DNA of 64,000 nt from Escherichia coli (GTDB lineage: Bacteria; Pseudomonadota; Gammaproteobacteria; Enterobacterales; Enterobacteriaceae), in assembly GCF_013122565.1 (NCBI RefSeq), contig NZ_CP053258.1. One strand, given 5' to 3'. Every line of letters starts with the position of its first letter. Within the stretch, counting starts at the first letter, position 1. The position numbers and the translations under genes are program-made. Positions 32,773 through 37,580 of this stretch are shown in pieces. Below the pieces are notes generated by a model. That model was not told the origin of the DNA and did not search any database. It worked only from the letters and a program-made list of their open reading frames with translations.

Positions 32773-33687
32773 ATGGGTAAAACAATAAGTATGAAGGTTC
32801 TGTTCGGTATTTATCTTCTATTAATAGCAGGCAAAGTTTTTGCCTTCAGTTGTAATGTCGATGGCGGGTCAAGTATTGGAGCAGGTACAACCTCTGTTTA
32901 TGTTAATCTCGACCCTGTAATACAACCGGGCCAGAATCTGGTTGTAGACTTGTCTCAGCATATAAGTTGCTGGAATGATTACGGCGGCTGGTACGACACT
33001 GATCATATAAACCTGGTACAAGGCTCAGCTTTCGCAGGCTCCCTACAGTCATATAAAGGATCGCTGTACTGGAATAATGTGACCTACCCCTTCCCGTTGA
33101 CAACAAATACCAACGTATTGGATATTGGTGATAAGACACCGATGCCATTACCGTTAAAACTCTATATTACTCCAGTCGGGGCGGCCGGCGGAGTTGTCAT
33201 AAACGCGGGGGAAGTTATTGCCCGTATTCATATGTATAAAATTGCAACATTAGGAAGCGGAAATCCGCGTAATTTTACGTGGAATATTATTTCAAATAAC
33301 AGTGTTGTTATGCCAACAGGCGGCTGCACCGTTGATAGTCGTAATGTCAACGTGAATCTCCCGGACTTTCCTGGAAGCGCAGAAATACCCCTTGGCGTAT
33401 ATTGCTCAAGTGAACAAAAGCTCTCATTTTATCTTTCGGGTGCTACCACTGACAGTGCCAGACAAGTGTTTGCTAACACAGCACCAGATGCAACAAAAGC
33501 AGCGGGAGTGGGTGTCTCTCTGATGCGTAATGGAAAAATACTGGCTACGGGAGAAAATGTCTCCCTGGGGACAGTAAATAAAAGCAAAGTACCTCTGGGT
33601 TTAAGCGCAACCTATGGACAAACAGGAAACAAAGTTTCAGCCGGAACCGTCCAGTCAGTCATTGGTGTCACTTTTATCTATGAATAA
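32773..33687 (+). CDS. ydeQ: Fimbrial tip adhesin YdeQ (FimH/FmlH-like two-domain adhesin)
   Basis: 304-aa ORF, last gene of the operon; adhesin-like length and signal peptide. Confidence 0.85.
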
Positions 33688-33759
33688 TTGTGATTTTGAC
33701 CTTAGTCTATGCGCTCCATTCACGAAAATTGCGCGGATAATTATTTTGTGAAGGCTATT

Positions 33760-33777
33760 ATCCTACACCTGTAAGAA
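33760..33777. promoter_or_regulatory. EvgA-box-like inverted repeat (ATCCTACA-CC-TGTAAGAA) upstream of ydeP
   Basis: Matches the TTCYTACA-N2-TGTARGAA EvgA consensus; ydeP is a known direct EvgA target. Confidence 0.65.
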
Positions 33778-34020
33778 AATCCGCGCACAATTGAAGCCAG
33801 AGTCTTATTTTTTATATTGAAAAACATGTTAATTTAAACACTATGAGAGATGATGCTTAATTTATCGTGTTTAATCTTTTGTTTAACGATAATAGATTAA
33901 AAATAGAAAGAGAGTAGTCCCCTACTCTTATATATCCATGTTGACGATAATCCCTTTGTATATACTGTGCATCATCGCTATTACAAATCCTAATAATTCA
34001 TTTCCACACAGGATAAGCAG

Positions 34021-36300
34021 ATGAAGAAAAAAATTGAATCCTACCAGGGAGCTGCCGGTGGTTGGGGTGCTGTTAAATCCGTAGCGAATGCAGTACGTAA
34101 GCAGATGGATATACGCCAGGATGTTATTGCCATGTTTGACATGAATAAGCCAGAGGGCTTTGACTGTCCGGGTTGTGCATGGCCAGATCCTAAGCACAGT
34201 GCGTCATTCGACATTTGTGAAAACGGCGCAAAAGCAATCGCCTGGGAAGTCACGGATAAGCAGGTAAACGCCTCTTTCTTTGCTGAGAATACGGTTCAAT
34301 CATTACTTACCTGGGGAGACCACGAGCTTGAGGCTGCGGGGCGACTCACTCAGCCTTTGAAATATGATGCCGTCAGCGACTGTTACAAGCCATTAAGCTG
34401 GCAACAAGCTTTCGATGAAATTGGCGCACGCCTTCAAAGCTATAGTGATCCCAATCAGGTTGAATTCTATACTTCGGGCCGCACTTCCAATGAAGCTGCC
34501 TTTCTTTATCAGCTTTTTGCCCGTGAATACGGGAGCAATAACTTTCCCGACTGCTCCAACATGTGCCATGAACCGACCAGTGTGGGTTTGGCAGCGAGTA
34601 TCGGTGTGGGTAAAGGGACCGTGTTGCTGGAAGACTTTGAGAAATGCGATTTAGTCATTTGCATTGGGCATAACCCTGGTACAAACCACCCTCGCATGTT
34701 GACTTCGTTGCGCGCTTTAGTGAAACGGGGAGCGAAAATGATCGCCATCAATCCTCTACAGGAACGTGGTCTGGAGCGATTTACCGCACCGCAAAACCCG
34801 TTTGAAATGCTGACGAACTCTGAGACTCAGTTGGCCAGTGCCTACTATAACGTGCGCATTGGTGGCGATATGGCGTTGCTCAAGGGGATGATGCGCCTGT
34901 TAATTGAGCGCGATGATGCTGCAAGCGCCGCAGGTCGGCCCTCATTGCTGGATGACGAATTTATTCAAACGCATACCGTCGGCTTTGACGAGCTACGCCG
35001 TGACGTTCTCAATTCCGAGTGGAAAGATATCGAACGTATTTCTGGACTAAGTCAGACTCAAATCGCCGAACTGGCTGATGCATATGCCGCTGCCGAACGC
35101 ACCATTATCTGTTACGGAATGGGGATCACTCAGCACGAACATGGTACCCAGAATGTACAGCAACTGGTCAATCTGCTGTTGATGAAAGGTAACATTGGCA
35201 AGCCTGGTGCGGGTATCTGCCCACTACGAGGTCACTCTAATGTACAGGGCGACCGAACCGTCGGTATCACCGAGAAACCGTCTGCAGAGTTTCTGGCTCG
35301 CCTGGGTGAGCGCTATGGTTTCACCCCACCTCATGCACCTGGACATGCTGCAATTGCCAGCATGCAAGCGATATGTACGGGGCAGGCTCGAGCATTGATC
35401 TGCATGGGGGGCAACTTTGCACTGGCAATGCCAGATCGGGAAGCGAGCGCTGTACCGTTAACGCAATTAGATTTGGCGGTACACGTAGCCACTAAGCTTA
35501 ACCGCTCTCATCTGCTGACCGCACAGCATAGCTATATTCTGCCGGTTCTTGGGCGTAGCGAGATTGACATGCAAAAAAGCGGTGCGCAGGCGGTAACCGT
35601 TGAGGATTCAATGTCGATGATTCATGCCTCGCGTGGCGTGTTAAAACCCGCCGGTGTAATGCTGAAATCAGAGTGTGCAGTGGTCGCGGGTATCGCGCAG
35701 GCGGCACTACCCCAGAGCGTGGTAGCCTGGGAGTATCTGGTGGAAGATTATGATCGCATTCGCAATGACATTGAAGCTGTGCTGCCAGAGTTCGCCGACT
35801 ATAACCAGCGCATCCGACATCCTGGAGGTTTTCACCTGATAAACGCAGCTGCTGAAAGGCGCTGGATGACGTCGTCAGGTAAGGCTAATTTCATTACCAG
35901 TAAAGGGCTGTTAGAAGATCCCTCTTCAGCGTTTAACAGTAAGCTAGTCATGGCGACAGTACGCAGTCACGATCAGTACAACACGACGATTTATGGTATG
36001 GATGATCGCTATCGAGGGGTATTCGGTCAACGAGATGTGGTCTTTATGAGTGCTAAACAAGCTAAAATTTGCCGTGTAAAAAACGGCGAAAGAGTTAATC
36101 TTATTGCGCTTACGCCAGACGGTAAGCGAAGCTCACGCCGCATGGATAGATTAAAAGTGGTCATTTACCCTATGGCTGACCGCTCACTGGTGACCTATTT
36201 TCCAGAATCGAATCACATGCTAACACTTGATAACCACGATCCATTAAGTGGCATTCCAGGCTATAAAAGTATTCCGGTTGAATTAGAACCATCAAATTAA
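34021..36300 (+). CDS. ydeP: YdeP, molybdopterin oxidoreductase-family acid-resistance protein
   Basis: 759-aa ORF; sequence and length match K-12 YdeP. Confidence 0.93.
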
Positions 36301-36418
36301 TGCCTCTTCTCATTTCTTCTGCTGTCATCCGCACAGCAGAAGAATTCCTCATTGACTATTATCGCGCAATTTGCTCACATGGATTAAATTAAACCACATC
36401 CTATAAGATATAAACTTC

Positions 36419-36436
36419 TGCCTACAGCTGTAAGAA
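36419..36436. promoter_or_regulatory. EvgA-box-like element (TGCCTACA-GC-TGTAAGAA) upstream of safA-ydeO
   Basis: Shares an extended ~40-bp module with the ydeP upstream site (CCTACA-N-CTGTAAGAAA-N-TCCGC...TGAAG). Confidence 0.6.
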
Positions 36437-36547
36437 ACTCCGCTCAGTACTGAAGTGTCAGTCCTATTTCCTCTTTTCTCCAGCCTGTTATATTAAGCAT
36501 ACTGATTAACGATTTTTAACGTTATCCGCTAAATTAACATATTTGAA

Positions 36548-36745
36548 ATGCATGCGACCACAGTGAAAAACAAAATCACGCAACGAGACAACTATAAAGA
36601 GATCATGTCTGTAATTGTGGTTGTCTTATTACTGACTCTTACATTGATAGCCATTTTTTCGGCAATTGATCAGCTGGGTATTTCAGAAATGGGTCGCATT
36701 GCAAGAGATCTTACACATTTCATTATCAATAGTTTGCAAGACTGA
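36548..36745 (+). CDS. safA: SafA (B1500), small membrane connector between EvgS/EvgA and PhoQ/PhoP
   Basis: 65-aa ORF (MHATTVKNKITQRDNYKEIMSVIVVVLLLTLTLIAIF...) with a single transmembrane segment. Confidence 0.88.
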   Translation: MHATTVKNKITQRDNYKEIMSVIVVVLLLTLTLIAIFSAIDQLGISEMGRIARDLTHFIINSLQD

Positions 36746-36818: not shown

Positions 36819-37580
36819 ATGTCGCTCGTTTGTTCTGTTATATTTATTCATCATGCCTTCAACGCTAACATTTTAGATAAAGATTACGCCTTCTCTGATG
36901 GCGAGATCCTGATGGTAGATAACGCTGTTCGTACGCATTTTGAACCTTATGAGCGGCATTTCAAAGAAATAGGATTTAATGAAAATACCATTAAAAAATA
37001 TCTACAATGCACTAACATCCAGACAGTGACGATGCCTGTTCCTGCGAAGTTTTTACGTGCTTCAAATGTACCGACTGGATTGCTTAATGAAATGATTGCT
37101 TATCTCAACTCGGAAGAACGCAATCATCATAACTTTTCAGAACTTTTGCTTTTTTCTTGCCTGTCTATTTTTGCCACATGCAAAGGTTTCATTACACTAT
37201 TAACTAACGGTGTGCTATCCGTTTCCGGGAAAGTGAGAAATATTGTCAACATGAAGCTGGCGCACCCATGGAAGCTGAAAGATATTTGTGACTGCCTGTA
37301 CATTAGTGAAAGCCTGTTGAAGAAAAAACTAAAGCAAGAGCAAACGACATTCTCACAGATTCTTTTAGATGCCAGAATGCAGCACGCAAAAAATTTGATA
37401 CGCGTAGAAGGTTCAGTCAATAAAATTGCCGAACAATGTGGTTATGCGAGTACATCTTATTTTATTTATGCGTTCCGCAAACATTTCGGCAACAGTCCAA
37501 AGAGAGTTTCTAAGGAGTACCGTTGTCAAAGGCACACGGGTAGGAATACGGGCAACACGATGAATGCTTTAGCTATTTGA
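36819..37580 (+). CDS. ydeO: YdeO, AraC-family acid-resistance regulator
   Basis: 253-aa ORF with C-terminal AraC HTH (...IAEQCGYASTSYFIYAFRKHFGNSPKR...). Confidence 0.92.
   Translation: MSLVCSVIFIHHAFNANILDKDYAFSDGEILMVDNAVRTHFEPYERHFKEIGFNENTIKKYLQCTNIQTVTMPVPAKFLRASNVPTGLLNEMIAYLNSEERNHHNFSELLLFSCLSIFATCKGFITLLTNGVLSVSGKVRNIVNMKLAHPWKLKDICDCLYISESLLKKKLKQEQTTFSQILLDARMQHAKNLIRVEGSVNKIAEQCGYASTSYFIYAFRKHFGNSPKRVSKEYRCQRHTGRNTGNTMNALAI

Follow-up and report, generated by a model that had tools for sequence, protein, structure and literature searches.

The outer inverted repeat around the EvgA box of the Escherichia coli ydeP promoter is probably incidental and its right arm lies in a conserved promoter linker

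RESULTS

The ydeQ-ydeP intergenic region and its EvgA box

The DNA examined, referred to here as the window, is a stretch of 64 000 nucleotides from Escherichia coli (contig NZ_CP053258.1) in which the gene order is collinear with ydeQ-ydeP-safA-ydeO of E. coli K-12. All coordinates without a locus label are those of the window and the features discussed are collected in Table 1. The EvgA box in the ydeQ-ydeP intergenic region lies 244 bp upstream of ydeP and has one mismatch against the EvgA consensus TTCYTACANNTGTARGAA, an 18-bp inverted repeat of the form TTCYTACA-N2-TGTARGAA. With up to three mismatches allowed, the sole other match to the consensus in the window was TGCCTACAGCTGTAAGAA (36419-36436), located before safA. 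Boxes of this kind at the ydeP, safA-ydeO, emrKY, yfdX, frc and yegR promoters were reportedly described by Masuda and Church in 2002/2003 and by Itou et al. in 2009.

Table 1. Coordinates of the genes and promoter features in the window. Positions relative to the start site refer to the predicted +1.
Feature	Window coordinates	Strand	Position relative to start site	Remarks
ydeQ	32773-33687	+		Fimbrial gene
ydeQ-ydeP intergenic region	33688-34020			
Upstream island TCCATTCACGAAAATTGCGCGGATAATT	33715-33741			27 nt, holds the left arm; kept in the EC42405-type allele and in L003, in which both flanks have diverged
Left arm AATTGCGCGGAT	33727-33738		about -116 to -105	Polymorphic upstream DNA
EvgA box ATCCTACACCTGTAAGAA	33760-33777		centre about -74.5	Primary EvgA dimer site
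Linker, box to AGTCTTATTT	33778-33800	+		23 nt; gapless match to safA 36437-36459
Right arm ATCCGCGCACAATT	33779-33792		about -64 to -51	Within the conserved linker between box and -35
Weak EvgA-box-like 18-mer CGCGCACAATTGAAGCCA	33782-33799			Candidate secondary site at exactly +22 from the primary box
AGTCTTATTT	33801-33810	+	-42 to -33	Predicted -35 region; identical in L003, one singleton in E. coli
TAATTT	33830-33835	+		Predicted -10; gapless alignment with safA TATATT
TATGAGAGATGATGCTTAA, start of the ydeP leader	33842-33860	+	predicted +1 at 33843	Invariant in all 9 aligned lineages including L003
ydeP coding sequence	34021-36300	+		759 aa; open reading frame list and K-12 annotation of the collinear region
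safA-ydeO promoter, EvgA box TGCCTACAGCTGTAAGAA and conserved flank ACTCCGCTCAGTACTGAAG	36419-36459	+		Paralogue of the ydeP module
safA	36548-36745			3' of ydeP
ydeO	36819-37580			After safA

An earlier reading of this DNA from its letters and open reading frames only (the sequence-only reading) had placed an EvgA box upstream of ydeP. This is right, given the match to the consensus with one mismatch, the collinearity with K-12 and the standing of ydeP as a known direct target of EvgA (PMC7174508, PMC4283999). The EvgA site is said to occur at all directly regulated genes (PMC4283999), and ydeP is described as being free of control by GadE, GadW, GadX and RpoS (PMC7174508). EvgA footprint data were not found in the literature texts searched, a search that the original motif and footprint papers fall outside.

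Alleles of the region were collected from complete E. coli genomes, from a divergent genome (L003, 77% identical in the intergenic region) and from a scan of metagenomes. The scan was anchored on the invariant 19-mer TATGAGAGATGATGCTTAA, which lies outside the repeat described below, so that the sample is unbiased toward alleles with intact arms. Among 26 collinear alleles, variation in the box was confined to position 2, which is the non-consensus position, to the central NN and to one singleton, and the box is also kept in L003. As far as these alignments tell, the consensus positions of the box are under purifying selection. At position 2 (33761) the window allele is ATCCTACA, K-12 and the commonest metagenomic allele have AGCCTACA and one contig has ACCC; the window box (ATCC...) is nearer the consensus by one base than the K-12 box (AGCC...).

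In Edwardsiella, Yersinia, Raoultella and Tatumella the DNA upstream of the homologous ydeP is unrelated and no EvgA box was found in it, and the comparison is therefore uninformative. In Edwardsiella (L004, L005 and L007) YdeP has 85% amino-acid identity to the E. coli protein and the DNA upstream is GC-rich, unrelated and without an EvgA box; so high an identity across genera may reflect horizontal transfer. A further contig, JARKOR010000108.1 (L002), labelled as belonging to a Candidatus Nanosynbacter metagenome-assembled genome, encodes a YdeP identical to that of the window behind a K-12-type promoter, and is almost certainly E. coli contamination of the bin.

Layout of the ydeP promoter

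A 178-nt ydeP leader has been used (PMC11210196), which implies a +1 at about position 33843, corresponding to about 1586664 in MG1655. The implied +1 sits 7 nt after TAATTT and is the second base of the invariant 19-nt stretch at the start of the leader. The start site, the -10 and the -35 region of Table 1 are those that we infer from the sequence on this footing. A consensus scan picked out a different promoter, with TTGAAG (33791-33796) as -35 and TATATT (33813-33818) as -10. This is less likely as it breaks the alignment with the safA promoter presented below and does not fit the 178-nt leader. It is also disfavoured because a natural allele of the ECONIH1 type (L063, L067, L070, L088 and L143) reads TTAACG where the window has TTGAAG, the change falling at 33793-33795, immediately past the right arm.

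The spacing between box and -35 region recurs at other EvgA promoters. At emrK the sequence AGTCCT occurs exactly 23 nt after the box, in the same register as at ydeP; yegR has AATCCTATTC in the same 23-nt register, and frc and the proximal yfdX box have TCTCTGATT in common 23 nt downstream. The boxes of these promoters were located in K-12 at emrK/evgA (L059 5514-5531), frc (L059 15507-15524) and yfdX (L059 16501-16556), and at yegR (L061 8414-8431). The yegR promoter also has ATTTAAACACTAGAGAG in common with the -10 and start region of ydeP, shifted by 5 nt.

Within the ydeP 5' leader, positions 33911-33928 can form a 7-bp stem with a 4-nt loop (AGAGTAG TCCC CTACTCT), which was flagged as terminator-like on the minus strand. 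The stem is roughly preserved in divergent alleles and an A>G change in L003 gives a G.U pair.

Geometry of the outer repeat and comparison with chance

The sequence-only reading went on to describe the box as embedded in an imperfect inverted repeat. The repeat search found a perfect 9-bp complementary core, TGCGCGGAT/ATCCGCGCA, at 33730-33738 and 33779-33787 with 40 nt between the arms, and extension of the repeat through AATT requires a 2-nt bulge. The symmetry centre of the outer repeat is at 33758.5 and that of the box at 33768.5, hence the two axes are 10 bp apart with the outer axis to the left; 21 bp separate the box from the left arm and 1 bp separates it from the right arm. The elements and coordinates of the description are thus correct but the box, while inside the repeat, is not concentric with it and the word 'embedded' is misleading. 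This 10-bp offset by itself excludes the model in which a dyad operator is simply extended symmetrically. A second small inverted repeat, GGATAAT/ATTATCC, is present at 33735-33741 and 33757-33763 with a 15-nt loop. It runs into the left arm on one side and into the first four box bases on the other, and is broken in the K-12 allele (ATTAGCC).

There are 26 perfect inverted repeats in the window whose length is 9 bp or more and whose loop is 3-60 nt, a density of 0.41 per kb, and 12% of dinucleotide shuffles of the intergenic region contain such a repeat. When only the flanks were shuffled, a perfect 9-mer repeat bracketing the box appeared in 3.7% of cases (P = 0.037). Imperfect repeats were scored by local alignment of the 60-nt flanks with mismatches and gaps allowed, and on this scale the observed score was reached by 30% of shuffles and at 13.6% of the actual positions in the window. 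Exact copies of the 9-mer in the 64 kb are restricted to the two arms; with up to one mismatch there are 19 copies in the window against 19.85 expected, and so no enrichment. The outer repeat is at or near the level of chance and at best marginally unusual, although a perfect GC-rich 9-mer repeat within an AT-rich spacer is still only a ∼4% event.

A dispersed repeat of the REP/BIME or MITE kind was considered and rejected. The region was found in 5327 of 5426 complete E. coli genomes, at a median of one place per genome, and the repeat is single-copy, with a median of one and a maximum of two places per genome in 5322 E. coli genomes.

Unequal conservation of the two arms

The two arms differ in how far they vary. 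In the 26 collinear alleles, which represent 87 sequences, variable sites are denser in the left arm (four in its 12 nt) than in any other segment and sparsest in the right arm, where 33779 alone of 14 positions varies and does so as a singleton. The left arm is thereby no less polymorphic than neutral intergenic DNA. Expressed as variant states per nucleotide, the values are 0.33 and 0.07, respectively. The left-arm variants within E. coli are 33727 A>G, 33731 G>C, 33732 C>T and 33738 T>A and none of them is compensated; the EC42405-type allele adds a G>A change at 33731 which is likewise unmatched on the right arm. Pairing is broken without compensation at 33731 (G>A and G>C), at 33738 (T>A) and at 33779 (A>T). 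Across 19 distinct alleles, none of the 14 pairs had changed on both sides from one standard pair to another, and the covariation score was 0.022 compared with 0.023 for shuffles.

These observations bear upon the idea that the arms pair as a hairpin, either as a structure at the 3' end or terminator of the ydeQ transcript or as a DNA cruciform. The 9-bp stem is present in the centroid fold, the DNA fold of 76 nt gave z = -3.55 (for a stretch picked after the repeat had been seen), and three of the natural changes, namely 33732 C>T, 33781 C>T and 33727 A>G, would still allow wobble pairing on the + strand. However, four natural changes produce A.C, C.C, A.A or U.U mismatches, and covariation is no better than in shuffles. 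The RNA fold of 125 nt gave only z = -1.43, with 11 of 200 shuffles folding as well, and the loop would be 40-52 nt long. No terminator-like site was found on the + strand in the scan, the nearest T run being ∼15 nt past the stem, and the stretch had no Rfam match at E up to 1. We consider a functional hairpin to be highly improbable.

The divergent lineages give a more mixed picture. In L003 and L152 the left arm stands farther from the box, 12 bp having been inserted between the two. The 27-nt island that holds the left arm is, on the other hand, retained in EC42405 and L003 between diverged flanks, and in L003 the outer repeat persists as 12 of 14 gapless pairs, with one G.T. At one formerly mismatched position both arms have changed in this lineage (33729 T>A, 33788 C>T), giving an A-T pair. 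The retention of the island and the persistence of the repeat in L003 are unexplained hints, too few to outweigh the rest.

Natural replacements of the upstream DNA also exist. E. coli BKQ37E (L062 2432-2503) has an IS5-like insertion at the left edge of the EvgA box (…CCTCC|TTAGCCTACA), the element replacing ydeQ and the left arm, and so would serve as a natural test strain for the role of the upstream DNA. In metagenome contigs L106 and L107 the upstream sequence is likewise replaced, at other points.

The right arm lies in a linker common to the ydeP and safA-ydeO promoters

The ydeP (33760-33860) and safA-ydeO (36419-36519) promoters are homologous, and align without a gap, all the way from the EvgA box into the start region. 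After the box the two have 43 identities in 72 positions without a gap, and the best other 72-mer of the window on either strand reaches at most 39. The ydeP promoter reads linker AATCCGCGCACAATTGAAGCCAG, -35 region AGTCTTATTT and downstream ...CATGTTAATTTAAACAC; the corresponding parts of the safA promoter are ACTCCGCTCAGTACTGAAGTGTC, AGTCCTATTT and ...CCTGTTATATTAAGCAT. The right arm is homologous, in the same register, to safA ACTCCGCTCAGTACT. The homology points to duplication of a promoter module.

The safA flank ACTCCGCTCAG is itself nearly invariant in the fetched E. coli alleles and in L003, with one singleton variant. As the 4 nt after TGAAG are hypervariable, this conservation reflects selection and not a low mutation rate. 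A composite motif, TGTARGAAAMTYCGCKCA, was found at both the ydeP and the safA promoters in the loci covering them, and was absent from the emrK/evgA, frc, yfdX, gadE and yegR loci. The right arm owes its conservation to its place in the linker that joins the box to the -35 region. Judged from these alignments, it belongs to a directional promoter module peculiar to ydeP and safA-ydeO and is not half of a palindrome. A look-alike of the left arm upstream of safA, in reverse orientation at 36361-36377, was rejected as a partner since K-12 has ATTTCGCAATTT there and L003 nothing similar, i.e. it is not conserved.

A further idea is that TGCGCGGAT and ATCCGCGCA, 49 bp apart centre to centre, form an operator pair for a putative dimeric or looping regulator that would bracket the EvgA box and modulate activation. 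If true, the acid-resistance promoters that respond fastest would owe their threshold to such a regulator, and safA-ydeO would share the proximal copy. The uniqueness of the 9-mer in the 64 kb would fit an operator pair, as would the position of the left arm within an island conserved in divergent lineages, the persistence of the repeat in L003 and the conservation of a right-arm motif specific to the ydeP and safA promoters. Nevertheless, 4 of the 12 left-arm positions vary with nothing to match on the right, the spacing changes by 12 bp in L003, and safA keeps only one copy, the upstream look-alike not being conserved. The reported freedom of ydeP from GadE, GadW, GadX and RpoS also speaks against it. 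YdeO was rejected as the factor binding the arms, as these are unlike the YdeO box (an ATTTCA inverted repeat) and ydeP is not among the seven targets found for YdeO by ChIP-chip (PMC4222967). Inspection by eye for likeness to a marbox, CRP site, GAD-box, PhoP-box, NarL site or DnaA-box gave nothing convincing. An operator pair at these arms appears very improbable to us.

The claim of the sequence-only reading that the extra symmetry might extend the EvgA site can now be addressed. As an extension of the palindrome it fails on the 10-bp offset of the axes, the unequal conservation of the arms, the absence of covariation, the 12-bp insertion, and the finding that safA keeps the right flank without a left partner and other EvgA boxes lack both flanks. 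The corresponding model, in which the arms would be extra half-sites concentric with the core dyad, draws on the mere existence of the repeat and is extremely unlikely. Besides the offset and the unequal conservation, the arms are unlike EvgA half-sites: the left-arm 18-mer scores in the upper 2.4% but at offset -34, which is out of register. The flanks are missing from six other EvgA boxes. Neither flank was found at emrK/evgA, frc, yfdX (two boxes) and yegR, and safA has the right flank only. The part of the claim that survives is one-sided. The right arm is constrained, and contact by a second EvgA dimer, by RNA polymerase or by another factor is possible.

A candidate secondary EvgA dimer site in the linker

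EvgA is the E. coli homologue of BvgA. At BvgA-activated promoters, head-to-head dimers of phosphorylated BvgA occupy the DNA at 22-bp intervals and the proximal one abuts the -35 (PMC7250471). By analogy, a secondary EvgA dimer site of low affinity could occupy 33782-33799 and abut the -35, with the right arm as its upstream half and the left arm uninvolved. When the region was scored with a position weight matrix built from 14 EvgA half-sites, this 18-mer was the second best in 33700-33845 and fell in the upper 0.9% of the window, while offsets of +21 and +23 scored at background. The equivalent +22 position at safA is in the upper 4.9% of window 18-mers. The 23-nt register from the box to AGTCYT is kept in ydeP, safA and emrK, and the slot at 33780-33801 ends at AGTCTTATTT; the geometry would fit a dimer abutting the -35, given the predicted start site and -35.

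Against this, the +22 18-mer matches only 9 of 16 consensus positions, and the corresponding slot at emrK only about 5 of 16 by hand count. The ydeP and safA promoters are homologous, and hence are not independent tests, and the two yfdX boxes are 38 bp apart and not 22 or 44. We therefore hold a secondary dimer site to be a tentative possibility with the odds against it. It would refine the explanation of the outer repeat as incidental and does not contradict it, the site being extended on the promoter side only.

DISCUSSION

A known promoter with an incidental repeat

The best explanation of the locus, to which we give a probability of roughly 0.65, is that of a known EvgA-activated ydeP promoter at which the outer repeat is incidental. 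In this mechanism phosphorylated EvgA would bind as a dimer to the 18-bp box at about -74.5 and would activate a weak sigma-70 promoter consisting of the -35 region AGTCTTATTT, the -10 TAATTT and a start near 33843. The linker would be contacted, probably, by a second, weakly bound EvgA dimer 22 bp downstream or by RNA polymerase. The left arm would be ordinary upstream DNA, complementary to the right arm by coincidence. The coordinates, the asymmetry, the conservation pattern and the homology of the ydeP and safA promoters are direct observations; what contacts the linker is something that we infer.

Within the acid-resistance network the EvgA box of ydeP is already textbook-level knowledge, and the outer symmetry behaves unlike a functional element. 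What the comparison usefully adds is the gapless homology of the ydeP promoter with that of safA-ydeO, and the conserved GC-rich linker that both carry from the box to the -35.

Comparison with known systems

The box agrees with the EvgA box as described, being the same 18-bp inverted repeat with one mismatch, upstream of ydeP and conserved across E. coli lineages. Nothing essential differs, and the box as described does not include the outer repeat. The closest relative is the safA-ydeO promoter 2.6 kb downstream, which like that of ydeP is built from the box, A[AC]T[CT]CGC[GT]CA, N5, TGAAG, N4, AGTC[TC]TATTT and TGTTA[AT][TA]TTAA. Unlike ydeP it has no conserved complement of the flank upstream, and thus no outer inverted repeat.

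The Bordetella promoters Pfha and Pptx, activated by BvgA, offer a more distant parallel. The regulators belong to the same response-regulator family, each promoter has a strong inverted-repeat primary site upstream, and at ydeP a slot of 22-23 bp before the -35 holds a weak look-alike at +22. The ydeP promoter differs from them in that the second EvgA dimer is only a candidate drawn from sequence similarity, which at +22 is weak, and in that the yfdX spacing is 38 bp. If the linker does hold a second EvgA dimer, then EvgA would act like BvgA, and this could help to explain why the ydeP and safA-ydeO promoters show the strongest response.
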